A DNA stretch of 64,000 nt from Bilabrum cf. latius. Lineage: Eukaryota. Under the pieces are notes generated by a model. The model saw only the letters and a program-made list of their open reading frames with translations, had not been told where the DNA came from and searched no databases. Position numbers and translations under genes: made by a program. The DNA lies in the NCBI GenBank assembly GCA_965178125.1, contig OZ237757.1:496001-560000 (forward strand). Direction: 5' to 3'. Shown one piece after another: positions 135 to 64,000 of this stretch (the stretch's first letter is position 1; each line of letters opens with the position of its first letter).

Positions 135-1104
135 TCAGGGCTTCGCAGCATCGATGGCCTTCCTAATCTCCTCGGCGTGCGCAGCGCCCGCCGCGTCCGC
201 AGTGGCCTTGCCTTCCTCCTCACCGTGCTTCTCGGCATCCCCAGCATTCTTGGACACCTCGTCCACGCCACCCTTGGCCGTAGAGGCGTGCTCCTACCCG
301 GCCTCGTCGGCCGATTTCCCAGCCTCTTCCTCCGAGACGCCCCCTGCATCCTTGTCGTTAGACACCGTGATGTGGGTGCTCGTCTCGGTCACGTGCTCAC
401 CGTGCTCGTTTGTGTGAGTTTTCGTCTCAGTCTTAAGGTTCACGTGCTTCTTCTGCGCGCAGGGCACGTCGTCCTCGCACTTGAGCTGGCAGTCGGGCCG
501 CGGGCAGTCCGATGGCTTGTGGCAGCTCCACTCGCATTCCACGTCCTCGCACTTCACCTCGCACTTGGCTGACGGGATGGAAGGCACGGTGACGCCACAC
601 TTGGGAGGCTTGCACACGGTCTCGCATTGCGGGCAATCCTCTTTCTCGCACACGTCCTCCGGGCACTGGACCTCGCACGCGGGCTCCTCACTGCGATCCG
701 AGAGAGCAGGCGCAGCAACACGGCAAATGAAAATACGTGAGATGAACTAGATACGAGCGGGTAGTACATGTGCAAGTAGTACATGTGCAATGCTCTAGAC
801 TACTTACCAGCTCGTTTTCGTGGACAGTTCATGCTCTTCGCAAGTGGTTTGGCACTTGGGTGCCTTGCAGACCGGGTCGCATACCTGCATGAGCATGAAT
901 TGAACAAGGGTACGCGGAACTAGGCGCCTAAATGAATAACGCGCAATGGTATCCCGAATGGAAGCAGGTACAGAATCTCACCTGAGGGCATACTGGGTCT
1001 GTGCACTCCCATCGGCATACTGGGTGGCAAGACTCGTCAACTTCACCTTCCTATGCGTACGCAACGGACAAGAAAACGAAAGAAGCAACAGTAAGCAGCC
1101 TCAT
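135..1104 (-). CDS. Secreted cysteine-rich repeat protein, ~251 aa (exons 1104-982, 884-808, 690-135)
   Basis: The signal-like MRLLTVASFVFLSVAYA is followed by an in-frame TAG and then CHPVCRWECTDPVCPQ|VCDPVCKAPKC...CEWSCHKPSDCPRPDCQLKCE. Two GTRAG..CAG introns restore the frame. A second TAG lies at 294-296, and the acidic tail ends at TGA 135-137. Confidence 0.85.
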
Positions 1105-1251
1105 GGGGGCTACGCTGCAGCAATGTATTTGGCCCTGAGCTGGCTCAATTTAGTCAGATTCTGCTCGCAACATTCAAGCTGCATTCGTCACAGACAGAGC
1201 AGTTGCTGCAAAATTTCATTCGGAGTGTCCTGTTGATTACACGACGTTTCA

Positions 1252-2205
1252 ATGGCGTTATTTGACCGTAGCAGAGTTCGATTGCATCTTACATTTGAGC
1301 GACGTGCTGGGGGTACTTTGGTTGTTCCAGTCGTCACAGAAACTCCTAGAGAGGCATGGCCAAGGTTGAATCGATTGTCAAGTCTTGTGCTCGATCATGT
1401 ACGAGATCTCGTGTTGAAAAAGGGCCTAGATTTGCTTGGCTACGTTGGTTTAGAAGTTCGCGATGCAGGTCTTCGAAAGAAAGGGTAGGATGAGTTCTCG
1501 ACGTAGTTCGAGATGGACATTGAGATTGGGATTGGCAGCTCGTCATACCGCGTCCTCGAATTGGGCGGGGTTCGGGCGCAGACGGCCAGTCAACCTACAA
1601 CATCGGTCCAATCTGAGTAGCTGAAGGAAGGCGACGCCATAGCCTCCACCCTGCCTGCCATGCGCTCGTCTGAAGTGGCATTGCACCCTTTGATTGTGTC
1701 CATCCAGCCAAAGACAGGCATCCAAGCTGATCTGGCAAGAGAAGGCTATAGCGACCATCCATCATTGCCCAGTACTACATCGATCGGAGGCATTACACTA
1801 AGGAGTGCGGTGCCGGGGGCCGGTGCCTCCTTGCCGACAATGCCGTCGGCCGCCAGCCCAGACACAACTGGAGTGTCCCTGGGACATGCAGCTACTAGCA
1901 GCACTGCCAGCGGGCCCGGTACACCTGCATCATCATCATCATCATCATCATCATTATTTGCAGGATCATCGTCCTCATCATCGGTGCCACAGACAGTGCC
2001 TGCTAGCATGTCCAGTACGGGAGGAGGCAGAGGGGGTCGAGCGGTGAGCGAAGGCAGTGCCGGCGGCAAGGCAGCAGCACTGGGCAGCGGCACCGCCCCG
2101 GACCCAAAAAGCAAAGGTCCTGGGCAATCAGGCAAGCAAGATAGCAAAGGGCAGGAGCGAATGGGGGATTCGGATTCGGATTTCGAATCCTCTAGCCAGG
2201 ACTAA
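1252..2205 (+). CDS. Hypothetical protein, ~317 aa, with a Ser/Gly-rich C-terminus
   Basis: ORFs 1252..1488 and 1660..2205 share a frame and are joined through three TAGs. The frame ends at TAA. No recognisable domain. Confidence 0.65.
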
Positions 2206-2367
2206 TATCACTCGCAGGCTTGGAGATCTAGGACACGTGCATCCGCCGTGGCTAATAAGTTTGGGCCGACATAGCAGAAGACCAAACTCCACTACTACGC
2301 GTCGATCATACATCGTACACATGCTGGTGAAACCCCCTTGCCTGCCAGCCTGTCCCCGTGTTCCCGC

Positions 2368-3660
2368 TCACCTGCCACTGCCACCACCACGTCGCACGGT
2401 CCTGCCGAACTCATCCACCTCTGGCTCGGCCTCCCGCTGGTACCCGCCCCTGTCCCCACTACGGGGACCTCCGTGAAATCCGCCCATGGCAGCGGAGGAG
2501 GAGGAGGAGGAGGAGGAGGAGGAGGAAGAGCTGGTGCCAGCTCCCGGAGGTGGGGGCGGGGCACCGTACCCGTATCCAGGGCCAGCCACGGGGCCGCCGC
2601 TAGGGAAACGATGGTGACCCGCGCCGGCCGTGTTACCAGCCCACCCATCCCGCCTGCCACCCTCCCGACCAAATTCGGCTCCGGGTCCTGACCGGCTCGC
2701 CCCCACGCCGCCGAAGCTCCTCCGGAAATCCACTGCTGCTGGTCCCGGCAGCGATGCCGCTGCGGAAGCGGCAGGCGGGGGCGGGGGCCCTCTGCCATGC
2801 CCGGGCTCGGACCTGGGCATGTCTCGCCTAAAATCGAACTCGCCCCGCGCGGGTGGGGGTGGGCCCCCGGATAACCCCGGCCCCCCATGCGGGGGTCCCC
2901 CCATGGGCCTGGCACCGTACCCGTACCCAGGCCCACTCTATGGGGGCGGGTGAGGGGATGAAGATTCGGAAGCTAGCTTCGCCCTGAGATCATCGGCGGC
3001 CCCCGGTGTGCCCAAGGGGAGCGGGCCTGGTCGGCTGCTGGCGCCCATTGCCCCCATGGGAACCGACGGAAGCAGAGCACCACCTGCTGGCAACCTGTCC
3101 ATGGCTCGCGCGTCCGCCCCAAATGCTCGTCCAGCGGACGCCATATCCTCTGCTAAGGGATCTAATTCAACAGATCCCTCCGCACCTCCTGTACCGCCGA
3201 GCTGCGCGCGCGCAGTTGCGCCGCCAAATCCGCCGCGACCGGCGTCGAAGCCCTCGCGCAACTAGTCTCGCAACTGCAGACCACTCTCAGCCCGACCGAA
3301 TTCGCGACCCGGTCTGAAACCCTTATCCATTTCTACGCTTATACGCCTGCCATCTAGTGCTGCGCCTTGCAGGTGATTCACAGCCGCGATGGCTCCCGCT
3401 CTCTCAACAAACTCTGCGATACAGAAGCCGACCGCCTCTCCAGTCTCCCGATTCACCCCCATAACAATATGTTCAACTGCTCCACACGTTTCTAGGAGGT
3501 GCCGAATCTACGGCTCGCTGGTGGTAAACGCGAGATTTCCCACATACACCCAACAAGAACTCGCAGTCACTTTGTAGAAGTTAGCATCGGTTTTGTACCG
3601 CTTCTTGTCTTGAAAGTACGGTTTTGATACGTCAGAATCGTACTTCAAAAAGCATGCCAT
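2368..3660 (-). CDS. NCBP2: Nuclear cap-binding protein subunit 2 (CBP20) with a long Gly/Pro/Arg-rich tail, ~430 aa
   Basis: The RRM sequence VYVGNLAFTTSEP*IRHLL...IVMGVNR...GFCIAEF...LDGRRISVEMDKGFRPGREFGRAESGLQLRD*LREGFDAGRGGFG matches the CBP20 pattern. TAGs at 3508, 3262 and 2938 are in frame. Ends at TGA 2368-2370. Confidence 0.9.
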
Positions 3661-3813
3661 GCGGAAATATGTTACAAACGTGCAAGAAAGTGGACCGGCT
3701 AGAGCACCTCGACCACTTCTGGCTCCGAGCTGCGCTTGTCGGGCTGCAAGCGATGTTGATGAAGCCCCCAACCAGTGATGCAGATGCGTCCCACAAGCCC
3801 GTATGTTAACCCT

Positions 3814-5724
3814 TCAGCCGAAACCAGGGATGAACCTGCGCTTCGGGCGCGCGGGCGCCGGAGCCGGGGCCGGTGCAGGCGCGGGCGCGGGCGAAAACCC
3901 TGGCGCGGCCGGCTCGGGAGAAGGAGCTGGAGCTGGAGCTGGCGCCGGTGCCGGGCCGGCCTCGTCGTCGCTCGAGTCTCCGCCATCCCCGCCCAGGCCC
4001 TCCTCATCCGCCTCATCGTCATCGCTCGAGTCGCCGTCGTCGTCGTCGTGCCCGTGCCCGAAGGCGTGCCCACCGCCCACCCACTCGCCTCCCTTGCCGC
4101 TTCCTCCACCGGCACCGCCCGACGCGCCGCCACTGGCACCCGGCGCGGCAGACGGGTCATCATCATCGTACTCTTCATCGCTCGACTCGCCATCATCTTC
4201 ATCATCTTCTTCTTCGTCGTCGTCATCCTCGTCATCCGTGTCCTCCACGACCTCGATCAGACCGTGCCCCCCCCCTGTGGGACCCCCCCCAGCACCCCCT
4301 TTAGCTCCTGAGCTCCCGCCCCCACCGGACTCGTCATCACCACCAGCCTCCTTACCCCCGGCATCCCCCCCATCATCCTCACCACCGGCTCCGGACGAGC
4401 CCCCGCCGCTACCGCCGCTTGCTGCACCACCAGCCGCTGCACCTGCCGCCCCCGCCTCCCCATCCGCACTCGTCACAACGAAAGACGCCGGAGAGTCACC
4501 GAGCGCCAGCCCGCCGGCACCGACAGTCAGGTACTTCCCGCACGACATGGAGCACAGCTGCACGGTGCGACCAACCTGCAGCGGAACCAGGTCCCGGCTC
4601 TCCTCAGCGGCGCCCGCCCCGCCGGCACCGTGCACCGACACGATCCAGCGGCCGCAGAGACCGCGCATCGTGCGGCCAGCGGGCTTGAAATCGCCGCTGC
4701 GGGTGGCCCCTAGGTGCATTGCACGGCGGCTCGCGCCCTTGCCGTCGGCCCCTGCTTCGCGCTGCAGGCTCACCACGCCCTGCCCATGGTTCCACACGCG
4801 CAGCTGGGACTGCTCGTTGGCCTCGCCCGTGAAGCAGTACCCGGCATCGTCTGCGGAACCCTTGCGCTTGCCCTTCCCGGCGAAACCGACGAACTGGCCC
4901 GTGCTCGCCTCCTTGAGCGCGATGGGGACGGTGGTGCGAGCACCGCCGCGGCTCACACCGCGCTCGCTGTGGACGTAGAACCGTGCCCACTTGCCCTGCT
5001 TGCCCTTCACGTTCACGTCACCTCCTTTCGTGATGCGAAGGTAACGCCCGGTGCGAGTGCTCTCGAACAGGTAAATGCCTGCCTTGCGGATCTTGCCCTC
5101 GAAGCGGCGAGCAGGCGCCTTGGGTCCGTCGGCGCACCAGACCTGCGGTTAGATGTTCGACCGGTACGTAAGTAGGCTATGCACATCATAGGGTTCTAGG
5201 TTAGGGTTAGGGTTGTTATGCGTAAATGGTTCACAAATGCACTCACGCGCCAACGTGCCCGCTTGCCTGTGCCAGTCTTCGCGGGGGGCTTGATCGACCC
5301 ATCGTCTTTCGTTCCGACGTGGTGCTTATTGGTTCCTGCCTTGAAACCGAGTTCGATGGACTGCAGGCTCACGGTGCCATCTCCGTGGTACTCGATCTGC
5401 GAGTTAGGTAGGTGTAGCTTCAAAGATCGGTTGAACATTCTGTCGCGGGTAGTAGCTCGCGTCAACGTGCCAAATGAGCATCGAAACGCCAATAACTCAA
5501 TTCAGTGTCGGTATTGCAAATGTAGAAACGAAATATGACCCTTAAGTGTACAACAAAACATAGCTTACATGCAGATTGCACCACTTTCCGCCGTGCCCAG
5601 CGACCGCGTTGCCCGCGCCGTTGATTGCTAGCCACTGAGACCCTTTCCCCACATTCTGCAGCTTGATTGCGTCCGGCTATTGCACACCCCTGCCTTTGCG
5701 ACCAAATTTTCTGAACTTTGGCAT
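3814..5724 (-). CDS. Beta-trefoil (fascin-like) repeat protein with an acidic, Pro-Ala-rich tail, ~544 aa (exons 5724-5569, 5396-5247, 5142-3814)
   Basis: Repeated ~45-aa units (IKLQN..WLAI..GGKWCNLH; YLFES..GRYLRI..GKWARFYV; VQLCS..GKYLTV..ASFVV). Two phase-0 GTRAG..CTAAC..GCAG introns and one in-frame TAG. The fold assignment is an inference. Confidence 0.7.
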
Positions 5725-5875
5725 GATATCGTCAAATAAATGATGTGACACTCGGGGTCCGTGTCGCCGAGGCGTTCGATGTGCTATGTGATGATTGCGG
5801 AGAGAGCGGTCGCAACTTGTGGTCGCAGCTCGCTGGCATTGCTGAGCCCTGTTCACAAACCAAACAGAAGATCCT

Positions 5876-7924
5876 TCATCCCTCGGGCACGTGCTCCTTG
5901 GCACGGTTGTACTCTGCCTCCTTCTTGCTCTTCTGCCTGTACCTCGCCGACATTTCCGCCTGCCGCTGCCTCACCCTCCTCACGATGTCGTCACCAAACA
6001 CGAGGTCGGAGCCGAGCGCGATCCGTCGGAGCTTCTTCTCTTCACGGGGCAGCGTGAGGGAGTCTTGGATGGCGCGACGCACCTGCTCCCGCCTCGAGAG
6101 CGTGGCGGAAGCGATGCTTTCACTGGAGGAAATCACCCTGGCGCCCCCGCTGTCCTCCCCTGCTCCTTCCGCGGCATGGGACGCTCGCCCGTGCCCCTCG
6201 GTGGGTTTAACCTATTCTTCCCCTGTTGTCTTCTCCTCGTCCACCCCACCCTCCTCCTCGTCGTCCTCCTCGTCCATGTACCCGCCATCCCCGGGGGGAA
6301 GCAGGTCGCTCCTTGAGGGCTATACCACTATCTGCACATTAAAATTAAGCAGCAGGTCCCTCGTCACGTGAAAGGGCGCGTTCATGACCACCTCGTCCGC
6401 GTACCTGCAGGCCAGCACGCTCATGGTCCTCTCGTACTGGTTGAGCACCGGCCAGCCCCCGCCACGCAGCCGGTTGACAGTTTGGTCGTCGTACACTCCC
6501 ACCAGTACGAAGTCGCCGAGCTTCTTGCAGCGCCGCAACGTCTCGATATGGCCGGTGTTGAAGAGGTCCCAGCCGCCGGGCACGTACACAACCCTATCGC
6601 CGGGGCCGGGGGCCTTTCCGGTGGAGAACTGGGTGAACCTTCGGCTAGTGGGAAGGAACCGAACGGGCCCTTGCATGGCGGCGATCCGCCTCATCTGGCT
6701 TGACACGGAGCGGCTGCGCACCGGAGAGGGTGGTTCCATCCCTGCACCTGTCCCCGCGCCGCCGCCCGCACTTGCTTCTATCGCCAGCCCGCCGTCATGC
6801 ACCGGGCCTGGCTCGGCCTCCACGCCAGCAAACACTGGGGTCAGGTGCCCCGGCCCCAGGCCCGTCGCACCCTCAAAGTCACCGCCATCGTCCTCCTCAT
6901 CATCCTTGTCTCCAAGAGATACAATCGAGCCGGACCTTCCCGCGCCCACCCCCAGTGCGGGGAGGACTGGTGACCCGGGAGCAGAGCCGCCTTCCTCTCC
7001 CCCCATGGCACCAGACCCCGCATGGTGTGGTGTCCTCAGGTGGTGCTCAGTCGTCATCAGGAGCATCCTCCCGACAATGTCCGTGGTGCTGACCCCTTCC
7101 GTCCTCTTGATCATCCGGAATCGACCGAGAGACTTGGCGTAGGCATATGCGTCCTTCCCGTCGGCCGTGATGCAGGGGTCATCCCCGTGCACCACGTACT
7201 CGATGCCGTGTTCCCTGACGAGGTAGTCGACCCACTCCTGGGTGAGATCGTAGGGCGCATCCGGGATGACTTTGTCCACCCACTTGCAGGCCCTGAGTGC
7301 CTCTAGCCTCTCCTTGAAGGACATGACGGGGGCGCTCCCCTTGTTCTTGACGATGTCAGCGTCGCCGACCAAACCCACCACGAGCTCGTCGCCGACCGCA
7401 CGTGCCTAGCGAAGTGCATTCCTGTGACAAAGGCGGTACACATAGCATGCATGCAACGGGATGAAATGGGCTACAGGTGGCTGGGCGCGATATAGGCAGT
7501 TGCGGCCAAGTTCACAAGCAAGGTATCGGTCGGCTGGCTTTTCTCACGAATGCCCGTAATGCATCATGTCAAAACATCCATCGATATAGACTCTGCCCTT
7601 CCTGCCACTAGGAGTGCTCCTGCCTACCTCCGACCCAGAGTGCGGCCGTCCAACTTGCGAGGACGAAGCCCGCCTCCCTCTCCCAACGTTTGATCCCGTA
7701 CGCTTTCGGGCCGTGCCCCCAATATCAACATGTGGCTTATCAGCAGTCTAGTCCTTGCCAGTTCCGCTAGATAGAGCGGGTACAGCGTACTTAGAGACCA
7801 ATTTATACACGGCGAATCCAGTTGCTGCTAGTCCCACAACAGCAAGCACGTTCTTTGCGGTTTCGATCGCCCCTTCAGATATGCCTGTAACCGTAGATTT
7901 ACCTGATGATCCGTTATCTCCCAT
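5876..7924 (-). CDS. PCYT2: Ethanolamine-phosphate cytidylyltransferase (ECT/PCYT2); one intron at 7547-7422
   Basis: RVYIDGCFDMMHYGHS|NALR*ARAVGDELVVG, VVHGDD and KRTEGVSTTDIVGRML, a second CTase domain (VYVPGGWDLFNTGH...ERTMSVLACRYADEVV), and an N-terminal hydrophobic anchor. Four in-frame TAGs. Ends at TGA. Confidence 0.93.
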
Positions 7925-8104: not shown

Positions 8105-10486
8105 TCACTATCTCCCACTTTCATCCCATCCCTCCTGCCGCAGGCCCCTACGAGTGCTGCCTCTGGCTGCCCCATCCTCCCAATCGCCACCCCGCCGGCC
8201 TCGCTCTCGCCCATCATGGTCTTGCCCATGCTGTCGCCTATGGTCTCGCCGAGCGCTCCTACCTCCCGCCCCACGATGTCCACCTCCCTACTCAAAGCCC
8301 CTACCCCTGCCTCTTCCTTGCCTCTCACGGGAGAATGAACCCCCTCTCTCTCCACTTGCCTCGGCCTCATCCACATCCACATCCTCTTCTGTCGCAGAAC
8401 GAAGCAGCCGATCGAGGTCTGCGTCGCGACCGCCATCCAGATCCAGTGGAAGCGCGACCGAGGCATCACTCGTCACACCGCCGTTTCCTATCCGGACCTC
8501 GTTACGAGACCCGCTCAGCCGCCCGCCCACGCTCTGTGCAAATGCCGCCGCCGCCATCCCGATGCCCACCTCACTCGTCACACCATCGATCCCATCCCCG
8601 GACTGGCTCGATCCTTTGCTACCCTGCAGTGCCTCCGCAAGAGGTACCCACGCCGGCCGCGCCTCCCAACCGCTCGTCACACCCCTCAACCGCTCCAGCA
8701 CCTCGGTCAGCGCGCAGCTGTGCCCCTCCCCTGGCCTCTTGCCTTCCTCCACAGGACCGCCAAGGCCGCGCTCAAGGTGGCCAAACAGGGGTAACACTCC
8801 GGACCGCGGCACGCCCAGCTGGCCCACCAGCTTGTGTTCCCTCCGGAGAGCGCTAGTCCAGGCTTTCTTGGACATGCCGCCGGAGCCATGTGACGAGTGA
8901 CTGAAACCATGTGACGAGTGGCCTTGGTGTGACGGGTGCTCTTCTTTCTTGTGCCTTCGGCTGCCAGTGCCCCGCAGGGTAGGAGGCACCTCCACGTCCC
9001 TACCTGGCTGCAGCCTTGGCCAAACAGCTAGGCTGCTGGAGCTGCCGCGGCTAGCCGAATCGCCGCGCACAGAATCCCCACCGGGAGCCTCCCACACCGG
9101 GTCTACATCAAGCAAATGCGCCCGCGAAACCGCCCCGAGAGCCGCCTTGCTCCTCGCGGCCATCAGCGGGGATACCCTGCTGGCTGTGGAGGAGAAGGGG
9201 GCCCGCAGCACCTGCAGGGCGGAGGCACGGAGCTCAAGGAGACTGTTCCCCGCACCTCCGTGCAATGCACCCTGAGGGGATCCTGCCGCAAGGCCCTCCT
9301 CGCCCGCCCGCCGGAGTTGTTCCCTGGCATCTTGCCTGGAGGAGTCCTCCTCCACGATGTCCTGCAGCCTCAGTGTGCCGTCCTGCAGCACCCGCGCGTT
9401 CCGCCCGTGGGCGAACCGAAGCCTCTGCCAGCGATCCAGGTGCACTGCACTGTGATGCTAGGATCCACTCTGTATGCGCCCCGGTGATGAGTTGCTAGCC
9501 CCTACCCCCCTTTCTCCTTCCCCTTCTCCTTCTCCCCACTGCTGCTGCCGGCCCGTCTCAGAGGCCCGCCCCCCGGCACCCCCCGCCTCCCTCCTCCCCT
9601 GTCTGGGGAACAGCCCCCACTGCTCGTGAAATAGAGCAGACGCGGCCACCTGGTCCGGAGCATTTATGACTCCGGGCTGGTCCAGCGACACCCCCGCCGC
9701 ATCGCATGCCTCTCTCCAGTCTGCGGCGTGCCTCGCGCTGGCCTCCCAATCGCTCGGGGGCGCCAATCTGACGTCGTAGCGCCTGCCCGTGGGTGTGTCA
9801 AAGGCCACTCGTGCGGCGTGTAGCATTGTCACCGGCCATTCGTGACCCCCATATTTGTCATCTCCCACGATCGGGCAACCGAGCGCTCTGCACGTTGCGC
9901 GCAGCTGGTGCTGCCGACCGGTGACAAGCTGGAGGCGGAGGAGGCTGACCGCACCCATCGTGGGGTGCTCTCTAGATGCGAGAACCTCGAATTTGGTCTC
10001 TGCTTTCCGCACGCCGGAGCTTCGAAACGTGAATCTCTGCCCGTCGGGCGTCTTGCCGTAGCTGCCGGTGAGCACGCCCCGTTCGTGCAGAGGCCTGCCC
10101 GTCACGACTGCCAGGTATTCTTTCCGCATAAATCGGTGGCCCTACATCATACCCCTGGCAAATCGAAATGCATTCGGCGTCTTTGCGTATAGAATTAGCC
10201 CGGAGACCGGGCGATCGAGCCTGTGCAAGAGGCGAGGCATCGTACGCCAGCCATTCCTAACACCATGGTCGACAGCCCAGGCGTGCGTTGATCTATCGCC
10301 ATCTAGCGAATTCTAATCTTGAGATCCTGCGGTAGGCTAGCCGCGCGGTTTGCTGATAAAACAGAAATGGTCATCCTCCCAGACTACATGCGGCAACTGC
10401 GGCTGGGGAGCGCTTGAGAAGCCACGAATGATTCCACGACGGGGCAAAATACAAACAAATTGTCGTAGTCTAGATAGTCCTGACAT
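8105..10486 (-). CDS. RluA/RPUSD-family RNA pseudouridine synthase, possibly mitochondrial, with a long low-complexity C-terminal extension (~793 aa)
   Basis: Motifs WEDDHFCFISKPRG*PT, LHRLDRPVSGLILYAK, KEYLAVV, LVTGRQHQLR, LGCPIVGDDKYG and MLHAARV. The N-terminus is Arg/Ser-rich and presequence-like. Six in-frame TAGs; ends TAG-TGA. The extent of the C-terminal tail is less certain. Confidence 0.85.
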
Positions 10487-10629: not shown

Positions 10630-13413
10630 ATGCTGCAAGCAGTTCAATCTGTACCAAAGGTAGTTGTCGATGAGCACGAAGAGGTTATCGGGAGGGCGTG
10701 CTACCTGCCATCACAGGCAGCTGTTTCACTTCAAGCAGAAGCAGGCACCGCTGTGCGAGGCCGCACCGGTGTCGCCAGGGGAGAATCGATCGTGCTTCAC
10801 GCAGTCAGCGTTTAGGTTGGTACAACCGTAATCTTGGATGATGCTGACATTCGTTTGAAGGCCGGCTCGAGGTATGGCCTGGTAGCCAAGAACGGTGAAG
10901 GAAAGTCCGTAGTTCTCAAGCTTCTGGCGACCGGTGCCATGCCGCATATTCAGGAGCATATCAACACGGTGTATGTTCAGCGAGAAGCGAGAGCATCTGA
11001 CCAGTCTTTGGTTGATTTTGTCATGCAAGGGGCGTGCCAGCTCCAGGCGTGGAGGCAGCACGTGGATCGCTTGGAGCGAGCCGTCGCTGATCTGGCTGGC
11101 GGGCAAAGCCCAGGAGGGACCAGCCCCGACGTCCAACTTGCAACCGACTCAAATTTACCTCCCGCGGAAATTGCACCCACGGCAGACAAGACAGACGGCA
11201 GCGCAGCACCCATGCCACCTGGATCTCCGTACGCCTTCACCTCCGTGGAGGAGGCAGTCGAGGCACTTGGGGAGGCCCAAACGAAACTGGAGGAAATGTA
11301 GGGACACTCTGCTCGAGCCCGGGCCCGGAACTGCCTCAGGCAGTGCGGATTTCCCGATGCCCAGCACAGCAGGACCACGCGGGAGCTCAGCGGCGGGTGG
11401 AGGATGCGGTGCTCCGTCGCCAGGGCACTGTTCGCAGAGCCAGACATCCTCTTCCTGGACGAAATCGAGACGTTTGCAGACTTGCCCACCCTTCTTTGGC
11501 TGCAAGGGTTCCTGCAGCAGGTCGGGCATGCCGCTGCTTCAGCTTCTGAGGAGGCGCCCGGCGCCGGTGCCGCTACTGGTGGAGCGGCCTCAGCTGGCAT
11601 GGCCGCGGATCTGCAGGCCACCACCGCCGTCATCGTGTCCCACAACCGAGCCTTCTTGGATGCAGTGACGACTGACACCATCCATCTCCACAGAAAAAAG
11701 CTGAGGCCGTGCCCAGGCTCCTACTCTGTATTCGTCAAGGCCAGGGAGGACCTCGCGACCAAAGAGGCGCACCTGTTTGAGAAGCAGGAGAAGAGGAGAG
11801 GCAAGCTGAAGCAGTCCGTGGAGAACGTGAAAAAGCAGGTCAAGCGAGCGGGAGACCACCGCATGAGTGCGGGCCAGGTTCGAAACCTCAAGAAGAAGCT
11901 GGAGCACTCGGGCGTTCAGAAGACGGCGGACGGGAAGCGGTGGAAGCTGAGCTACATGTGCGAGAGGCGAGAGGCCACCATCGAGCCGCCTGAGCCCAAG
12001 GTTCACTTTCAGATGCAATCGGCGGCTCCCATCAGCAAGGGAACAACCGTCATGCAGCTAGAGGGGGCCAGCTTCGCATACGGGACCAGGGTTGTAGGCT
12101 CATCAGAGGCTGCCTCAGCAAGCCCATCTGCGAGCGCAGATGCCAGCGATAGCCACCCCTGGGTCATCGAAGAAGCCACAGCGGCGGTCCGGGCGGGAGA
12201 CCGCATCGCGATCGTGGGTGCGAACGGCCACGGGAAATCGACCCTGGTTCGTCTGCTGCTAGGCGAGCTGAGCCCGCAGCGCGGGTCCCACGCGCGACTG
12301 GGGACTGCGCGAGTTAGGCACTTCGCGCAGCACTCGCTGGACGACCTTGACGGTAGCAAGACTGCCTTTGAGCATTTCATGGGGTCTATCGACGGCTCCG
12401 GGTTGAGCGACAGGGACGCCAGAGCGCAGCTGGGCAAGTTCGGCTTACGGGGTGAAGCTGCGGACAGGCCCATGGCCACGCTGTCTGGAGGACAGAGGTC
12501 GCGAGTGGCTCTGGCGGTGCTTTCGTTTGAGCCGTCTCACGTGCTGGTGCTTGATGAGCCCTTGCATTACCTCGACATTGACACGACGGAGGGTCTAGTG
12601 GATGCCCTGCAGAGCTACGACGGCACTGTGGTGCTGGTGAGCCACGACCTAAGCTTCCTGCAGGACGTGTGCCCGCAAGACGGACCCAGCACGCGCGTGT
12701 GGACGGTGAAAGACGGGCGGGTTATGGAGTCGACGACGCTTGAGACGTATCTTGGCTCTCTGGGGTCCTCGTTCAAGCAAGCCACTGGGTAGGCCGGGGC
12801 TGACGCCGTCGGCCTCGCCGGCGCTGCGGCTGGTTTGCTTACCCTGGAAGCAGCCAAGGAGCAGGCCAGCCCGTCTCCCGACGCTGTGGCTTCCGCTATT
12901 GCGGCAGAAACTAATTCCATCGATGCTGTTCGCGAGGCGAGCAGCAAGCCTGCAGTCGCAGCTGCCAGTGCTGAAGGCAGCGTGCGTGGCTCGGCTGGGG
13001 GGGCAAGCCTCGAGTGGGGCGGGCTCGGGCTTGAAGGGGCATTTGAGGACGGCAGTACGATCGAGACCGATGCAGTTAGTGGGGGCGATGCTGCTGCTAG
13101 TGCGCCTGGGATCCAGCGACTCGGGGGCGCCCCTCGTACGGCAGCTCCACTCCCAGACTCGAAATTGCCCAGTTCGAGGAAGGGTCCTGGTGCACCGCGA
13201 GCAGCCGATTCTGCAGACGCGAAGCTAGCAGACCCAGCGAGTGCAGCTGCAGCAGCACCCAAAGGACCGTGGGGCACCGCCGGTGCGGCAGTGGCTGTGG
13301 GGGGCAAGGATCGGGGTGGTGGCAGGGGCCGAGGAGGGCGCAAGGTGCCCAAGAGGATGCGGGCGAAAGCAAGAACTGCTGGGAAGGCTGGGGGTAGTCC
13401 TGAGTGGAGGTGA
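10630..13413 (+). CDS. ABC-F family ATPase (two NBDs, no TM domain), ~927 aa
   Basis: NBD1: RYGLVAKNGEGKS / LSGGWRMR / ILFLDE / VIVSHNRAFLD. NBD2: GANGHGKST / LSGGQRSR / LVLDEP / VLVSHD. One frame runs through TAGs at 10813, 11299 and 12790 to TGA 13411-13413. The TAG at 11299 lies between Walker A and the signature motif of NBD1. Confidence 0.9.
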
Positions 13414-17240: not shown

Positions 17241-17534
17241 AATGGAGGGTTGCTTCATACGAGTCCCAATCACGTTTCCACGAAATGTCCGCATCTCTGT
17301 TATGGTCCCTGCACAATCTTGTTCAGAGCGGCAACCGCGTCAACTTAAAACGTGTATCACAGATTGTGAAAGAAGTACATCTCGGGCAACCGCAAATGCA
17401 GCGGTGTCATGGTCGCTGGGGTTTCGTGCGACCAGCGCCGGTGGTTCCGTTTTCTAGTGTTGCCGCGCACCGGCCGACCGACCGACTTTATTGAGACGCT
17501 CCATTTTTTCCGTGACTCTTGAAATCTCGGCGTC

Positions 17535-52500: not shown

Positions 52501-54884
52501 GCATCGGCTGTTTCGGCCTTGCAAACTGGAGAGAAGCCCGAGTAGTACCCAGTCAGCTCGCACGTCACAGGCGGGCCACCCGCCGGGTTGGCCACCTCGA
52601 ATCCGTTCGAGCACTCGTAGTAGCACGACCCGCGGAAGCAGTCCTTACTCGTCACTCCCGCTAAGTTCAGATCGCTGCAGGCAGGCAGCTGCATCCTGTA
52701 TGCGCCCTCCACGCGGTCGGAAGATACGAGAGCGCCCGACCTGCCGCCAAGCAAGATGAGAGACCCATCGCCTGCAGGGGCCAGCGATGCGAATCCACGT
52801 GCGGCGGGGGCCTGGCCCACGATTTTCAGGGCCCCGTTGAACTCAAAGGTGCGCAGATCCAGGGCGTGCACGTCTCCCAGGGCAGATCCATCCGCATCGA
52901 TGCCACCGTAGATCCAGGCAACGCCGCGATGCTGCGTGGCGGCGTGACCGAAGCGGGGCACGGGCAGGTTGCGGACAGGCATCGCGTACACTTCGGCTTC
53001 GCAAATGGTCAAGGTGTTGCCTGCTTTAGGCTGAACGAACCAGACATACCTGCCGGTCCGCTTGCAGGTCACATCGGCGGTCTTCGCGATGGGACTCGGC
53101 ACGTCTCCGTCGCATTCGGTGTTGAGGTCGTACCTCTCCTTGTTGTTCCCCACCCACACGGAGATCTGCTTGGATCGGTCCCTGCAGCACCCGTCCTCGC
53201 GGTCGTAGATCTTCACCCGGGTCAGGTCGAACGTCTTCTCGAGATCGATCCTCACCCAGTGGTGCGTGCCTGAGTGACCGCCCGAGTGGGTGCACGACTT
53301 GAAGCGGCTGTGGCTCTGATCCTTGGTTCCATCGTTGATCTTGGCGGCAGTTCCTTCCCACGCCTGCTGCGTGGCAGCGGTGGGCTTGCCGCTGGCCACC
53401 TCGATCTCTCCGTTGTTGATGGACTTCCACTTCCACGGCTGCGGGCCCATGACCATGAGCTCGCACACGTCCAGCCGCTTGTCGGCTCCACGCAGGAAGG
53501 CATGTACATACCGTCCCACAGCCCCGGTGCAGGTGACCACGGTAGGCACCGGCAACCTGCCAGTGTACGGGTTGTTGCACTCGGTGAAGGAAGAAGTGCC
53601 CTCACCATCCAGCGGGTCCGTGCGGTGGTTATTCACGGAGAACCGCACTCCATTCGGGTTGTCTGGACGCCAGTCCGAGCGGCGGTAGAAGCGGATCTCA
53701 GACACCTCTCTTGGACCCCCGAGGTCCACCGACAGCGACGGGTTCGATTCAGTCTTGCCTCCAGCGCACTGCTCGTTGGTTGACACCGTCGACAGTAGCC
53801 CGTCCACAGCCCGCTCTGGCTTGAATCTCGAGTTGCCATTAGAGCTGGTCTGGTACACGGGCTGTCCCTTGGCGATGTTGGCGAGATCCCCGGATCCCCT
53901 GAACCCCACCGAGCTGATCGCCCACACGTGGTTGGTTGCGTCCTCGGCGTCGGGTCCAGTGCGGCCCCCGAACAGCACGGCCATGCGGCCAGTGGGGTCA
54001 GCCGTGAGAGAGTGGTCGAAGCGGCCCGCGGGTGCATCGCTCTGGGCTGCCGCGGGTGCTTCCCACTCGAGAGGAGTGCTGTCGGGCTTGAGCACGGCGG
54101 TACTCGCGTGGATGGTGGAGCCGTCTCCCTACCCGCCGTTGACGAGCAAGCAGTCCTCACCCAACGCCTCGCAGTCGCGCAGCACAGTGGCTGCCGCGTA
54201 TCGCCGAGGGCTCGTCAGAACTGTTGGATTTATGGTTTCCCATGTTAATGAGGCTGCGGGGTCCAATCGGATGCTTGAAATCTACCACTGGCTAAATGAA
54301 GTGAGTTGGATCCACTGACGCGTCTCGACTCCGGGGATACTATCTTCGCATACGTGTTCAAATATTGGGCTAAGCCAAACAGTAAAACCAAATATACACT
54401 TTCTCACATGTTGGCATTTTGTAGGTAGTCCGCGTTGCAGCTGACCTGGCGCTATTTTCTCCGCCGTATGCATACACGACAGTCTTGCCTTGTGCGACTG
54501 CAACCCCGTTTTTCGAGGGTTGCACAGACGAACCAAAGTCTTGAGTGCGAGCGACACCGTCTGCAAGGAAATTATTGGAAATTTCAATTATGGAGGCGGG
54601 CTTTATGGCTCCCGTTCGGGCGGGCTAGCATGCAATGACCTTGGCACTGGTGTTTTGGTTCGTGCACCCAACAGTGGTCACTCACGCTGGTCAACCTCAA
54701 TGAGAGAAGCTGCTCCAGAGCCAGCATCTCCACCAAAGAACATCGCTGAAGCATTTGTAGACACCGATCTTGCTCCACTTCGTAGCTTTAGTGCCGATCC
54801 TGAAGCAGAAAGCTCGAACACAGCCACATCAGCGGCACGCGTCAACGCGAAGAGCACTAGGATTAGGGAAAACTCGGATAGCAT
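40569..54884 (-). CDS. Giant multidomain surface receptor/adhesin, copy B, ~4678 aa (exons 54884-54686, 54560-54408, 54253-40569)
   Basis: Inverted paralogue of copy A with the same two phase-1 intron positions. Nine in-frame TAGs. Ends at TGA 40569-40571. Confidence 0.9.
40587..54227 (-). repeat. Right arm of the ~13.7-kb inverted repeat
   Basis: Same evidence as the left arm. The arms are separated by a ~1.45-kb spacer that is not part of the repeat. Confidence 0.95.
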
Positions 54885-55111: not shown

Positions 55112-56377
55112 ATGCAATACTTATGGATTAAGAACATCTTGAATACATGTCAACGACGACTATCCGGTTTTGCCTCTTTGTCCAGAATTGGACAAGTTGC
55201 CAGCTGCTTTTCGCGAAGCAGGGACGCGCCGCGACAGGGGGCTTTGGCCCATTCGCTTCGGTGCAAAGTATCGATTGATTCTGAGTTATCGCCGGCAATA
55301 CTCCGAGGTCTAGATCAGTTTTCGCACGCATGGCTTCTCTACGAGTTTCACCATGCTTCGCGGAGTGGCGTTCGGGCCACTGTGAGGCCGCCAGCACTCG
55401 GGGGTAAGAGGGTTGGTACACTCGCCACCAGGAGTCCGCATCGTCCCTCCAGAATTGGTTTATGCTTGGGAAAGGTGTTCAGAGTCCGCTGTAATGAAGG
55501 CGAACCCGGCGAGGTTCTGATGTCGGGTTGCGATGCCGTAGACGGCTCTCCTGTGCTGGACATCAAGCCATGGATCCCGGCTGTTGATGTACCACGGGAG
55601 TTCATGGCATCGTGCTTCCTGGGAGTGGAACAAGATCTGTCAGCAGCCGCCCCGCAATGGGTGGCTCAGCCTTGGAAATCCTCGCAGTGCCAGGTCCGTT
55701 GGCAGCGGGCAGCAGAGACGCAGCTCGAGTGCCTGGGCCCGTGGTTGGCAGCGAGGAGCAGGCCACATTGCTTGAAGTTATATTCAAATGCGTTTGATTC
55801 TGGTCCCCGTGGCACTCCCTCTCGGATCGATGCAGACGATCTGCGGACGGCTGTGGAGCAGGTGCTGGCAGCAGATCTGCGGCCTGGCTTCCAACGAGCG
55901 CAACCACTTGCAGACTCTGAGATAGGTCTTGATGCAACGGACCGCTCTGATTTCTCTATCTTATGCTCAACAAAGAACGCTGCGGGGCCTGCTGACATTC
56001 AGGCAAGTACTGATGCCGAGGCCCAGGCCGAGCTTGGAGGGGTCAAGCCCGCAGCAGGATTCAGCCTCGCGGAACACACGTTTGCAATCGTGATGGATGG
56101 CATCGAGTTCTTGTACCAGATCAAAGGCAAGGGTCCCAAGTTAGATCCAGCGAGCAAATTGACCGATAGACGGGGCCAAAGCTCAAGCAGTGGCGAAATC
56201 CCGGTGGATGCTTGCGGCGACTAGCTGCCTCACCCTTCAGAGAGTAGCCCGGATGATGGACCCTCTGATGATAATCACATGTCATGGCACAAGACGATTC
56301 AACCCTCACATATAGACATCATTGGGTTGCATCCTGTGGGTCATTTGATTCGTAGAAGCAAGGAAGGGCGCGCCTAA
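55112..56377 (+). CDS. TRMO: tRNA (adenine(37)-N6)-methyltransferase TrmO/TsaA-like, ~421 aa
   Basis: IGQVASCF..APRQG, LRGLDQFSHAWLLYEFH, VRPPALGGKRVGTLATRSPHRPSRIGL and DAVDGSPVLDIKPWIP. The frame continues through TAG 56222 to TAA 56375-56377. Confidence 0.9.
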
Positions 56378-57703: not shown

Positions 57704-60700
57704 TCATTCTGTCGGGTCTATCGCGCCGTCTTGCCCAGCTGGGCCGTCCGGTGTGGTTGGCCCTCCACCACCGCGCTGTTGGCCGTCATGGTCGGTCTGC
57801 TCTCCACCAACATGCTATTGGGCTCGCACATCCTGCGCAGTTTGGCGATGTCCATGCTGGTGGGAATGCTACGCGCCAGCACCCTCGGCCTGCAGCTCGG
57901 GGCTGGTAGGGTTTACAGCATTAAGCATCTTCTTAAGGAGCGACAGCAGTTGGACGTCTCGGTCCAGATTACCGCTTTGAAGGGACTCAGTGGCAGAGTG
58001 AACCTTGCTGCGCTGCTTGGAGTCTTTGATGAAGCCATCGCATGGCAGCAGGGGGTCGAGCGCTTCAAATCCTGCATTCCCCATGGCAAAAGCCAGATCG
58101 TCGACTTTCTTCAGGGATGGATCGATCATATCGCACTACTTCTTGATGGATTCTTCGGTGCCATCGCATTGGGACTGCCCAAGAAGGAGGCCACCTTGCA
58201 CATTGGCTTGCTCAGCGGTGTACTCCGCGTAGTCCTTCTCAAGAAGTATCGTCTCGAGCTTTACGAGGGCTTGCTGCGCGGCCACTCGGTCAGGACCGCC
58301 CCGCACGCAGACTGAGTCCTGCTCCTTGGCACTGCCCCATGCATCTGAGCCGCGCACGGATGATCGTTGATCTGCACCAAAGAATCTAAAGTGCTCTTTC
58401 GGGATCTTTGAATCTGCATCGCGGAGACTGTTGCCTGTTCCGAGCAATGAAGCGTGCAGCACCCGAGTAACCGCGGCAGCCATGTTGAGAATGGACTCTG
58501 GGGACGTATCACTACTTGTGGTGCGATGCTGACGATGGTGGTGATCATGGACGTTGTCGTGATGGCGAAGGTGACGATGGCGCAGGTGCTGATTAGAGTG
58601 GTGGTGTCGACCGGCCCGCTAGAGCAGCAGTAGCGATGCACCCTGGTTTCTTCCACTTGATCCGTCGACGCCTGGATTCGAGTCTTGCCCGCTAATCGGT
58701 GCCCTAGTAACAGAGGTGCTGGACGATGCAGCTTCTGGCAGGCTCCAGTCAAGCAAGTGAGGTGTATTCCTCACTGTCGCGGCGTGTGCGTCACCAAGGA
58801 TACCACTCGCCGCAAGTTCCTGCGCAGCTTGGCGGCCTGCCTTGCTATGAAGCACTCCTGGTGGTAGTAACTGCAAGTGGGTTGCACTGTCTAGCACTGG
58901 CACTGGGGTGAACAATTTCGCAACAGTGCGTTGCAGACCCTCCGTGACGAATCGCATGGCCTGGAGCGATGCATGGTATGCCCGGTAGCTGAACGAGGTC
59001 TCGGTATGTGACTCTCCCGCGGTGTCTCCTAGCGGGAGTAGGAGAATTGATGCAGCATCTGACGACAGCGCACCCACGGGCAGACAAGCAAAGGCCTGCT
59101 CAAGCGTGAGCATCCGGTCAGCGAAGCGGTCGTACACAACCCAGCTCTTCGAAATATCGCTGAAGAAGACAGCAACTCCGTAGTCCCCAATACCAGTTCC
59201 TGGCTGTGTGCGTTTTGTTGAGGTGCAGCTGGCTTGAACTACTATAACTGCTTTCTCTGGCAACAGCATTGTGTCGTAGGCGATGGCTGCCGCTACTAGA
59301 CCATCACCTGCGGTGCGGCTCGTGGTTGACCTGGACGAGCGGGTAGCATGCACCCAGCTTTCCTTGGTTTTCTTCGATTCCACTGCGGCCTATAGCACGA
59401 GATCTTTCCCGCGTGCTGCTGGACACTTTGCGATGCCTGACTGGGTTTGACAGCAAGCTAATCCTAGCTGCTCGAGCGTGCCGGCTGATGAGGCTGTGTT
59501 GGTGATACCTGGCAGCTGGCTGCACACCTCACCGTTGTGGCGGCTTGCCACTAGAGTTGCTGTTCGAAGGGCTGTGCCGAAAGACTGAAATTTGATGCAT
59601 GCATAGTTGGTATCGCTACAGATCTGCTCTAGAGCGTCCTGCTCCAGCCGTGCGGTCCCACCAGCTCCAGGTTGCTCTTGCCGCTGCTGGTTGAGACCAC
59701 GCAGAGCCATAGCGACACGCTTTTCCAAGGGAGCGTCCGCGGAGGAAGCGGCGTTGGTCGATCTGAAAACTTGTGCCAGGTTGGATCGCATGCGTGCGTT
59801 GTTGTCCGAAGAGCACTTCTCGCTCACGGGGAAGTACCTCCAGGTGTCCTCGCTCTCTGAATGTATCACAACGCCATCCGAGTACAGAGATCTGGACCAC
59901 TCGTTCGCTCCGACAAGCTCCATGGAGCTTTGCTCCAATCCTGAAGGTGAAGTGAAGCCGTTCACGAGGCCGACGAGTCCGCCGTGCAAGGTCGCCGTGA
60001 GGGTTTCTTTGCTGCGGCTGGACGATTGCTCAGTGGACCGCTTCCACTTGTCCTTGTAGTGAGCTTCGAGCGACGGGATTTCCTCCACCATAGATTGCAG
60101 AGCCATGGCAGTCAGGTCTTGCGCTGTTGAGACCGCGCCCTTGCCGATCTTCTCGAGGAGTTTGCTGTTGTAGCCGTCCACCTGCTCCGGGGCACCCAGC
60201 TTGGCATTCTTGAGGTCGCCGCGGGTCTTCTGCACCATCCGAGAGATCGTGCCCCCGTTCCCGTCCTTCTGCTCAACCGTGTGCGTGGTTTGCATGAAGG
60301 TCACCACTGCGTCTGTCTCTTCCTCCACTTGCTACTTCAGCTCGGCACTCGTACTCGTCGCACCCGACATCGACTTGGAGTCTTCGTGGTGGGAGCTGCG
60401 GATTGCTTTCTGAAGCCCGATGCTGCCTCCAACAGACACCCCCGTGCGTATCTGCGAGCCTCGGCTGAGCAAGAACCACCGGGCGGTCTTGCGCGCCGCA
60501 TCAGGGACTTGGTCTGCGGCTTGCCTGGTGCTGGAACTGGCAAACACCTTGCGAAGGGCTTCGTGAGCAGAGTGCAGGGCTGCAACACTTCTGATGTCAC
60601 ACAGGAACTCGGGTGTGAACACATCCGCTGGGTGTGGGCTGTGGCAAGTACGATCTTCACCGACCCCGCAGTCAGGTCGCAGCGTTGGTGCGCGGAGCTC

Positions 60701-61440
60701 GACCGTGTGCATGCGCAGCGAACGCTATGATGATACAAGGTCCACTTGCACGCTGTCAGAACTAGACGAAGAATGCGATAGGGTTGTTGATCCCGACATA
60801 CCAGCCGCCAGGAACGGAATCTAGATCCCAAAGGAGGCGGAACCTCCTGCGACCACTAGCATGTCTTTGGTGGTCGCACTCGTCACTGCGTTCGTCAGCG
60901 CGGCCAAATTTGGCTCCTTTCGGTAGCCAAGGAATGGCGATAACAGCTTGCTGCACTCATCTCCAGCCGTTACCTATATACAATTCTAAGCTACCGACCG
61001 AAACGGTGCTGTCGCATTTAGTGCCGCCAGAACTGCGAAAGAGCTTCGACTCCAAAGATCCCCTACGGCATCTCTGTTTGAGCACTGTCTGCGCCGTATA
61101 GAGCAGTACAGTCGAGAGGCTATTAACACTTTGATGCATTTCATGCGATTTATATGATTATGCTGTTTATTCAAGAACTTGCTCACACAAATGCGGGTCC
61201 GGTGTGAAAACCAGCAATCTGTACAGTCCCCCCGATTTGTTCCATTCCCGGTAGCTATAGTGGAAACGATGAGGCTGGTGTTGTCACAAGGAGGCAAAAA
61301 CTGACCGCAAGCGCAACCAGACCGCATCTGGACTCTAGGGTGGGGGACTTGGGACCGCTACACTTGGTTGCAGAACCATCCACAGCATTCCGCACCAAAT
61401 AGGCGCCGCCATGGCAGCAAATCTTGGACCTCTGTAGCAT
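57704..61440 (-). CDS. MACPF/perforin-like protein 1, ~1212 aa (exons 61440-61187, 61088-57704)
   Basis: Hydrophobic leader followed by LPGMEQIG. MACPF-like signature WFLLSRGSQIRTGVSVGG, then LHGG and EWSRSLYSDGVVI. Six listed ORFs are in frame via ~11 TAGs, ending at TGA. The start codon and family call are inferred from degenerate motifs. Confidence 0.65.
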
Positions 61441-61644
61441 CGAATGCCTTTTGCGTGATTTAGTAGGAAAATTCAATAGAATCTTATGAATCTGTGGGGT
61501 GCAAGGCCTCATCAAGAATCTAGCTGGCTATAATATTAAAGATTCGACACGCTACTGGTTGCTTTCTTCAGAATGAAAACGCCCTATACCCGCCCATACA
61601 CCAATATTTTCCCTGTTAATCGAAGTATCGACCGTGGTATCTTC

Positions 61645-64000
61645 ATGTTGGCCAATGAAGCGCTGAGAATGCTTGTTCTAGCGTCCATACTGGCCTCGAT
61701 CCTGCTCGCGAACGCCGTGAATGCCGATTCACAGCCAAGCACGTCCGAAACTAGCGAAGACCGGCGTTGCAATGCTCCCGATGTGCTAAACTAGCTAGGT
61801 ATATCATATTTACCGTTCACTATGACAGCTACTGGTGTTCCAGGGCACCGTTTGGGACGAGTGGTCGAAGCCACGTGCGGATCCTACAGCTGCATCCGTC
61901 CAGCCTGTATGCCAGAACATGTGAGCTAGCTGAAACGAACTAAGAAACTTTCTACCTATATCAAAGTATGACGCCGACGTAAAGTAAGATTTAAGCAAAC
62001 CCTGTCCCAAGACAGCAAAAAATCGCTACGGCCGTCATTCGCAGCTCCATGCAGTGAAGACCTAGCGCGCGTATTCATCAGTCCAGACACACTCGACTGA
62101 GTCAACAGTAGAAAAAGCAGAGATGATAGCTCGTCAAGCCGGGTTCTCTGCATCTTACGGCCCGGTTGGAATGGGATTCGGCTACATCTTCGAATCCTCT
62201 ACAGAGACGGCTAAAGGATCACAGGGATTTGAAGTCATTTCGACCCGGCACATCGACGTGATTGACTACTCTTTGAAGCCAAGTTCATGGTTTACTGCGT
62301 GTTTTGCCGAGTACCCCCAGGGAACTCCAGGGTCTGCCGAAATGCTGCAAGTCCCATCAAGTTTCCGAGACATGTCGCAAGAACCGCCGACGGCAGAATC
62401 AGGTCGCTTGAGTTGTGATCGTCTTTTTACCCAGTCGGCCCTCTCGGATGCATTTGAGAAAGCATCTCAAGGATTACCTGTTCCGGAATCTCTGCTCTCC
62501 GAGTAGTTGCCGAGGTATCAATCTGAGCGGCTTGCAGTTCTGGAGCAAGCATCCGAAATCATTCAGAACTATTATGCAGAGTTCGTGCGGTAGTATGGAG
62601 CAATGACTATTGCAAACATAAGCTTAGGCGGGGAGTTGTCGGCAGTTCACAGCTTCGCTTCCGAAAATCTTGCTGCAGAAGACAAGCTTGAGATCGGACT
62701 CTAGCTTCAGGCCGGTATTGACAGCGAGTCTGCATTCAACTTGGGGGATCTGCTGGCTTCTGCAAGTGGAATAACATCGACTGAAACCCACTTGAACTAC
62801 AGCAAGGTTATCGATGGCCTGAAGGACGTGACTTCGACTGCGTATTACTCTCGATCGGAGCGGCAAAAAGGAGCTTCAAGTGAGCGTATCCTGAACATCC
62901 TGAGCGCAGCAGCCCACGGTGGAAAATTCGTGTTAGACATGAGCATGAAGTACAGCACATCGTAGCAGGTTCGCATCGCGAATACCGCGAAAAATGTTAG
63001 GCATACCGCTACGGGCGGCAAGCCGGAACTGATCACTATTGGTGGTGCATCCAACGTGGGGGATTCGCAGGCCAACGCTCACATGGAGTGGTCTGCCTCA
63101 GTACAAGACTTCCCAAGCGTGGTTCGAAGCGTGTCCATCCCCACCAGCGCGTTCATGGCCTTCGGCGACAGGTTCGCCTGCACCCGCCTGCTGGAGGCTT
63201 CCGACCAGCCCCACCTGTACGCCACCGAGGCCGACAGGGAGAGAGACTTCCGCGCGTGCTTCGCCTCGGGGTCCGGCCACCTGCTGAAGGATGACGACAG
63301 CACGCGAGAAGTGGAAGCGCACGAGCTGCCCCTCGTGTCGCGCTGGCGCAAGGCCCTGGTGCGGGCCGCCACCGAGGCCCGTCTGCGGGATGCCACCCGG
63401 CTGTCGTCGACGTTCGAGGCGGCTCGCACCGCGGGCGAGGTGATCCGCAGGGGCATGGAGATGTCGGATGGCGAGTGCAAGGACCTGTCAGAGCTGGTCC
63501 GGTGGTACACCATGATGCGGCTCACGGACTGGCCCGAGCTGGCCCCGATGGAGCCTGTGGACTGCGACAGGCGCGGGGAGCAGCCGCAGGGTGGGCGCCG
63601 GGGCCTGCACAGTCTGTCGACCGAGGACAAGACCATACTGGGGAACAAGGGACAGGACGCGAACAAGTACAAGGGGCACGCCACGGACCACTGCAGGGCC
63701 TGTCTGAACACAGTGCACGCCTACCTGACGTACAGCGCGCAGACCGGGCCTGGGCCACACAACCTGCAGTGCACGACGGTATCGAGCTTCACGCCCCCAT
63801 CTAGCTTGCAGTGCAATGCGTTCGCGCAGCTGTGGGGCGTGTCCGCCGACTCGGAGACGAAGGAAAGACGCATCGCCCGCCACTGCTCGATGCTGCCGCT
63901 GGAGGTGGAGCAGGGGCTGCGGCTGCACGCGGCACTGGACACGAAGCGGGAGGTGCAGGCGGGCACCGAGACTCGGATCGAGCCGCCGAAGTGCCGTGTG
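61645..64000 (+). CDS. MACPF/perforin-like protein 2 (intron 61921-62044; runs off the window end)
   Basis: Signal peptide MLVLASILASILLANAVNA and LN*LGISY. Signature YAEFVR*YGAMTIANISLGGEL, plus TGGKP...EWSASVQDFPSVVRSVSIPTSAFM. Six in-frame TAGs and no TAA/TGA up to the window end. Confidence 0.8.

Follow-up and report, generated by a model that had tools for sequence, protein, structure and literature searches.

How the codon UAG is read is the question raised by a stretch of 64,000 nucleotides of Bilabrum cf. latius DNA (contig OZ237757.1, positions 496,001 to 560,000), which was analysed at its full length and is called the window below. An earlier note, made from the letters alone, had claimed that UAG is a sense codon for glutamine (Gln, Q) here, with UAA and UGA kept as stops. 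The present analysis supports that claim through alignment columns of Gln, exchanges between TAG and CAG, the lack of any in-frame TAA where about 14 would be expected, spliced transcripts, and the in-frame TAGs of a relative. Very probably the window belongs to the nuclear genome of a eukaryote that is GC-rich, densely packed with genes and poor in introns, in which UAG specifies Gln and genes end mostly at UGA and also at UAA. This pattern, with UAG alone read as Gln, is what we take to be NCBI table 15.

Evidence that UAG is sense comes in the first place from the reading frames. Under the standard code the longest stop-to-stop open reading frames (ORFs) are 1630, 1520 and 1407 codons long, and they become 4672, 4591 and 2358 codons once TAG is allowed as sense; allowing TAA alone leaves the three longest unchanged. 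The gene ORFs of 4564, 4634 and 2354 codons are open solely with TAG as sense. In 13 coding segments comprising 18,210 codons, frame 1 contains 67 TAG, 0 TAA and 0 TGA, as the earlier note had described for internal TAA and TGA, whereas frames 2 and 3 of the same segments contain 27 and 56 TAA and 379 and 321 TGA, respectively. The small exons of three spliced genes contribute 4 further TAGs, bringing the total to 71 in 14 gene models (18,690 codons), with at least one in every model; the earlier count had been about 70. When read as Gln, TAG makes up 8.4% of Gln codons. In-frame UAG is found inside conserved genes, including the RRM domain of a CBP20-like protein and the cytidylyltransferase motif of an ethanolamine-phosphate cytidylyltransferase (ECT). 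These TAGs are not a product of chance, because purifying selection acts on the two giant ORFs, which are paralogous (dN/dS 0.20), and the codon is spread along the genes, with 19, 15, 6, 9 and 14 of 63 TAGs in successive gene quintiles.

Fourteen genes were reconstructed, 13 of them complete and one running off the window, and not 15 as had been claimed. They are given here with their coordinates in the window, strand, length in amino acids (aa), in-frame TAGs and stop codon.

135..1104, minus strand: G1, a secreted Cys-rich protein of 251 aa with no Pfam family; exons 1104-980, 882-808 and 690-135; 2 TAG, stop TGA.
1252..2205, plus strand: ORF of 317 aa, no known family; 3 TAG, stop TAA.
2368..3660, minus strand: nuclear cap-binding protein subunit 2 (CBP20)-like RRM protein, 430 aa (Pfam RRM_1 2.2e-12; PDB NCBP2 4.7e-29); 3 TAG, stop TGA.
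3814..5724, minus strand: gene X, a candidate beta-trefoil protein with an acidic tail, 544 aa; exons 5724-5569, 5396-5245 and 5140-3814; 1 TAG, stop TGA.
5876..7924, minus strand: ECT, 640 aa (Pfam CTP_transf_like 7.5e-23); exons 7924-7547 and 7420-5876; 4 TAG, stop TGA.
8105..10486, minus strand: RluA-type pseudouridine synthase (RluA), 793 aa (Pfam PseudoU_synth_2 3.1e-22); 6 TAG, stop TGA.
10630..13413, plus strand: ABC-F ATPase (ABCF), 927 aa (Pfam ABC_tran 2.1e-38); 3 TAG, stop TGA.
14343..17294, minus strand: membrane protein of 983 aa, no family; 8 TAG, tandem TGA TGA stop.
17535..24599, plus strand: CYFIP/Sra1-like protein (SCAR/WAVE complex) with long low-complexity inserts, 2354 aa (Pfam FragX_IP 6e-35; PDB CYFIP1 4.5e-14); 8 TAG, stop TGA.
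25438..39132, plus strand: giant surface protein A, 4564 aa; 8 TAG, stop TGA.
40569..54473, minus strand: giant surface protein B, up to 4634 aa, start uncertain; 10 TAG, stop TGA.
55112..56377, plus strand: TrmO-type tRNA methyltransferase, 421 aa (Pfam TrmO_N 1.2e-32); 1 TAG, stop TAA.
57704..61327, minus strand: protein of 1207 aa, no family; 10 TAG, stop TGA.
62123..64000, plus strand: MACPF-domain protein of 625+ aa, running off the window (Pfam MACPF 7.6e-07); 4 TAG.

The fold given for gene X, beta-trefoil of a fascin/FRG1-like kind, is a lead, all Atlas leads being below 0.9. Both giant surface proteins contain Kelch, F5/8-type-C (discoidin), Sushi, cadherin and IPT/TIG domains, and A has a multi-pass C-terminus. 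The final sense codon of the RluA gene is itself a TAG, with the TGA stop directly after it (8105-8113). A search with the CYFIP-like query against shorter proteins gave no match, probably having been swamped by low-complexity words, and an Rfam scan of the window returned no family and no rRNA gene; nor does the window contain a marker-gene set from which to place the organism. At 61% GC the window is as GC-rich as the earlier note had described it.

If UAG is sense, it must next be asked whether it also ends some genes. The 13 complete genes stop at TGA in 11 cases and at TAA in two; the earlier note had counted 14 complete genes with 12 TGA and two TAA, so that its TAA stops stand while the number of complete genes and that of TGA stops are each lower by one. 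UGA, absent in frame, acts as a gene end and not as sense in the window, and no gene among the 13 requires TAG as a stop. A dual, context-dependent UAG, read as Gln internally and as a stop near some 3' ends in the manner of Condylostoma, karyorelicts and Blastocrithidia, is the alternative that survives best, and we regard it as unlikely. The smallness of the sample of stops is in its favour, as are the TAG that directly precedes the TGA of RluA and the last TAG of ABCF, which is followed by a low-complexity tail of 206 codons. That tail nevertheless stays open over its full length and has a basic stretch at its end, and a contig from sequencing run X5 extends beyond the last ABCF TAG to position 13273. 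Nor is TAG depleted toward gene ends, where the last quintile holds 14 of the 63.

UAA could in principle have changed its meaning together with UAG. If TAA stood to TAG as CAA stands to CAG, 13.8 in-frame TAA codons would be expected in 11 ORFs, and none was seen (Poisson P ~1e-6). A code in which UAA and UAG both specify Gln (the table 6 type), with UGA as the sole stop and TAA merely rare because of the high GC content, is consistent with the ending of 11 of 13 genes at TGA and with the scarcity of A-ending codons, CAA being 18% of CAR; yet the same genes hold 27 and 56 TAA in their other two frames, and this explanation is very unlikely. Allowing TAA as sense in addition to TAG lengthens the top ORFs only marginally, from 4672 to 4702 and from 1251 to 1287 codons. 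The continuations of both TAA-terminated genes are implausible: translation past the stop of the 317-aa ORF would enter the coding region of CBP20 in antisense, and in TrmO a second in-frame TAA follows 32 codons past the first. No TAA was paired with TAG, CAA or CAG in the paralogue and ECT orthologue comparisons described below. A test of read-through in the flanks of TAA and TGA was noisy, with long spurious ORFs in the GC-rich DNA. In the window, UAA is not sense and ends genes.

Three independent lines, namely homologue columns, exchanges between paralogues and exchanges between orthologues, point to glutamine as the residue that UAG would specify. Columns were tallied from pairwise BLASTP alignments, and log-odds were summed over nine TAG columns. 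In ECT, the TAG within the motif NALR-x-AR faces Q in 107 of 119 homologues by this tally, and in 106 of 106 non-gap rows of a multiple alignment. The TAG at residue 51 of the CBP20-like protein corresponds to Q in all five solved PDB chains, which represent three distinct proteins. At residue 62 of ABCF, Q is the commonest residue (29 of 74), and at residue 115 of RluA it ranks third (18 of 139); in the PDB alignments of ABCF and CYFIP the TAGs sit in variable or unaligned parts. The earlier note had proposed such columns as a check, and over the nine from genes of the window it is Q that has the best summed log-odds, +2.87, with R as the runner-up at -4.26.

The paralogue line is provided by the genes for giant surface proteins A and B, which form a tail-to-tail inverted repeat of 13.7 kb (25459-39134 and 54227-40567, 96.3% nucleotide identity) around a 1.4 kb spacer. 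At 12 aligned TAG sites the codon is TAG in both copies five times, and at the others the second copy has CAG (5), GAG (1) or CTC (1). For every 500 codons, A and B differ synonymously about 100 times towards their 5' parts but 3-4 times beside the spacer, a gradient suggestive of gene conversion that spreads outward from the palindrome centre. The first 75 residues of B (54228-54473), which include one TAG, lack a counterpart in A; the true start of B is uncertain because the start codon of A is not conserved in B.

The orthologue line comes from a relative seen in two metagenomes as the contigs L001 (1-3910) and L002 (1-1713), with 55-56% GC and with L002 nearly identical to L001. Both contigs keep the order of ECT and gene X, which in L001 also lie on the same strand as each other, and the ECT of L001 is identical to that of the window at 362 of 502 aligned residues (about 72%), with in-frame TAGs of its own and TGA as its stop. 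Six TAG sites could be compared: four are CAG in the other sequence, two in each direction, one is GAG and lies in an acidic low-complexity stretch, and one is a gap. The TAG of the window in the NALR-x-AR motif is CAG in the L001 orthologue. Taken over paralogues and orthologues together, the other copy has CAG at 9 of the 12 TAG sites that differ. In these contigs the sense usage of UAG extends to the related organism. Public gene calls on L001 and L002 are fragmented at TAG; in the L001 ECT, two TAGs bound the fragment called as P0006, and P0270 covers just 53 aa of the RluA gene. As standard-code gene calls come out as fragments, the genome needs re-annotation with TAG as Gln.

It is highly improbable that UAG specifies a residue other than Gln, for instance Glu or Leu, the latter being its meaning in exLh (a rhizarian) and in some phyllopharyngean metagenome-assembled genomes (MAGs). 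What could be said for Leu is a hydrophobic column at residue 50 of RluA (L in 60 of 132; log-odds L +1.50, Q +0.05) and the pairing of TAG with CTC at one paralogue site, and for Glu its pairing with GAG at two sites. Against this, L scores -3.21 at residue 5 of ECT and -2.76 at residue 62 of ABCF, and both L and E rank below the eighth-best summed score, which is -10.16. The two most conserved columns are Gln, and among the 12 differing sites exchanges with TTG or CTG number none.

Whether the TAGs remain in the message was assessed with contigs from three runs, X5, X6 and X7, which belong to two studies (P2, P3) distinct from that of the DNA run X1. Contigs of X5, X6 and X7 skip six GT..AG segments (690/808, 882/980, 5140/5245, 5396/5569, 7420/7547 and 14079/14244), through all of which X1 runs straight, without a joint. 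The skipping contigs derive from spliced RNA, since the six introns are missing there yet kept in X1. Two of the joints (690/808 and 882/980) belong to G1, two (5140/5245 and 5396/5569, present in X5, X6 and X7) to gene X, and one (7420/7547) to ECT. Among the X5-X7 pieces listed, at least 19 of the 31 TAGs in bases 1-20000 are covered, with no other letter at any of them; the remaining 12 lie outside the contig pieces listed. The three TAGs of CBP20 are all present in X5 and X6 contig pieces and the three of ABCF in X5 and X6 contigs, and one X5 contig carries all eight of the 983-aa membrane protein, with no other letter. Over the 20 kb the pieces listed show a difference at one position only, 14385, where a single contig of low depth has C>A. 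Splicing-out and editing had been named at the outset as possible explanations to be checked in RNA; these, as well as base-call error, are excluded for the 19 TAGs, because they stand unchanged in spliced contigs. UAG is an ordinary sense codon, which occurs anywhere in genes including catalytic motifs, is unedited in spliced mRNA and exchanges synonymously with CAG. That the TAGs are untranslated, whether as sequencing errors, in pseudogenes, or through RNA editing or unrecognised introns, can practically be dismissed: nothing was found in its support beyond the guessed RNA labels of the runs, and against it stand the five TAGs common to both giant paralogues at a dN/dS of 0.20, the 19 or more unchanged in spliced contigs from two other studies, those within the RRM and the cytidylyltransferase motif, and the relative's own TAGs in independent metagenomes.

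The introns, 97-172 nt long and few in number as the earlier note had supposed, begin with GTAAG or GTGAG. In three of the six (5141-5244, 5397-5568 and 14080-14243) a CTAAC precedes the 3' AG by about 7 nt. A branch point this near the AG is typical of metamonad introns, which is a weak lead to placement and not evidence for it. Intron 14080-14243 lies in the 3' untranslated region of the 983-aa membrane-protein gene, about 100 nt past its tandem TGA TGA, and is spliced in X5 and X7. In 3850-4250 (gene X) and 6210-6275 (ECT) there are acidic and Ser/Gly low-complexity coding repeats where all four runs give many false joints and loose ends; the assemblies may be unreliable there.

Several points weigh against the reading of UAG as Gln and have to be set beside the evidence above. 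The labelling of X5, X6 and X7 as RNA is a guess, X5 being marked 'probably DNA', and no run is on record as RNA. Because ORFs were delimited at TAA and TGA, the finding of no in-frame TAA is partly circular. This is offset by the end-to-end match of ORFs to homologues wherever a comparison could be made (for CBP20, ECT and the two giant paralogues), by the slight gain in length of the top ORFs when TAA too is allowed as sense, and by the implausible continuations of the two TAA-terminated genes. As no more than 13 stop codons were seen, UAG may on rare occasions terminate translation. Five of the nine scored columns do not favour Q, several TAGs sit at variable, uninformative positions, and the column at residue 50 of RluA is hydrophobic, with L 60, M 24, V 18 and I 16 against Q 5 of 132. 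At three of the 12 TAG sites that differ, the other copy has GAG (two) or CTC (one). Finally, a tRNA scan found no tRNA gene in the window or in contigs L001-L004.

A mechanism can be proposed for glutamine at UAG with UAA and UGA retained as stops. According to the available part of Panek 2017 (PMC5304391), the CUA anticodon alone reads UAG without reading UAA, and a tRNA-Gln(CUA) is expected for this reason. Such a tRNA would decode UAG and not UAA, and it would probably have arisen from tRNA-Gln(CUG) by one anticodon change. The release factor eRF1 would have lost recognition of UAG while keeping that of UAA and UGA.

As for the lineage that carries this code, the nearest named proteins reach an identity of only 31-55% and belong to scattered groups. 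The best named match of ECT, 55% over a quarter of the query, is a Symbiodinium record, followed by plants and green algae; that of ABCF (31%) is fungal, followed by Andalucia and Creolimax. Closer relatives were found only among the contigs and proteins P0004, P0244 and L001-L003, the relative behind P0004 being 65% identical. The 61% GC, the GT..AG introns of 97-172 nt and the CYFIP-like gene may, as indirect signs, set the window apart from ciliates, in which none of these three is known to occur. Our search of the literature (CC-licensed PMC and bioRxiv) for a GC-rich, non-ciliate genome with UAG as Gln found none. There is in our view an even chance that the window represents an independent change of UAG to Gln, undescribed in print, in a GC-rich clade of protists that are neither ciliates nor fornicates, with at least two species (one known only from environmental metagenomes) and UGA as the main stop. 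If so, no earlier case of this kind outside the ciliates would have had a genome assembly, from which the sequences of the suppressor tRNA and of eRF1 could be read directly. Amoeboaphelidium was considered as a candidate and rejected: the available text of PMC5304391 gives it UAR as Gln, TAA is not sense here, and the ECT matches are not closest to opisthokonts.

UAA and UAG nearly always change their meaning together, and codes that split them are natural experiments on discrimination by release factors and tRNAs. The published cases, as far as the sources at hand extend, comprise the transcriptome of one fornicate and a small number of AT-rich ciliates, and in all of them UAA is the main stop. 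An independent data point on the splitting of UAG from UAA would come from a GC-rich organism that stops mainly at UGA and for which a contiguous genome and expression data exist; it would also allow a direct look at tRNA-Gln(CUA) and eRF1. The code itself is already known, and what differs is the setting, that is, the 61% GC, UGA as main stop, the 97-172 nt introns and the CYFIP-like gene.

In the portions of the literature at hand, UAG alone is reassigned to Gln in Iotanema spirale, Hartmannula sinica, Trochilia petrani and Protocruzia tuzeti, and the main stop is UAA in Iotanema and the phyllopharyngean ciliates (PMC5304391, PMC9161772, PMC11687900). The same sources give UAG as Leu in the rhizarian exLh and in phyllopharyngean MAGs, and as Ser in Scotinosphaera, and UAR as Gln in many ciliates, hexamitids, Ulvophyceae, Streblomastix and Amoeboaphelidium (PMC11687900, PMC5304391). 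The precedents cited in the earlier note agree with what could be seen of Panek 2017 and McGowan 2024, apart from the rhizarian, in which UAG is Leu and not Gln. The nearest parallel outside the ciliates is Iotanema spirale (Fornicata, Caviomonadidae), in which, according to the accessible text, UAG alone has become Gln and UAA is retained as a stop (PMC5304391, PMC9161772). The mechanism predicted there is also the same, a tRNA-Gln(CUA) with an altered eRF1, and a change in the GTS motif has been reported in Iotanema. The two differ in that UAA is the dominant stop of Iotanema whereas TGA ends 11 of 13 genes here, and in that Iotanema is an anaerobe described from a transcriptome only, in contrast to a genome of 61% GC. 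Hartmannula sinica, Trochilia petrani and Protocruzia tuzeti share the code table and the wide use of UAG as sense, as reported in the available sections of McGowan 2024 (PMC11687900), but in the phyllopharyngean ciliates with UAG as Gln the main stop is UAA and here it is UGA. With the UAR codes the window has in common that a stop codon one transition away from CAG is read as Gln, and it differs from them in that TAA is not sense, with none found against about 14 expected. With exLh, the phyllopharyngean MAGs and Scotinosphaera it shares the uncoupling of UAG from UAA, although the residue here is Gln.

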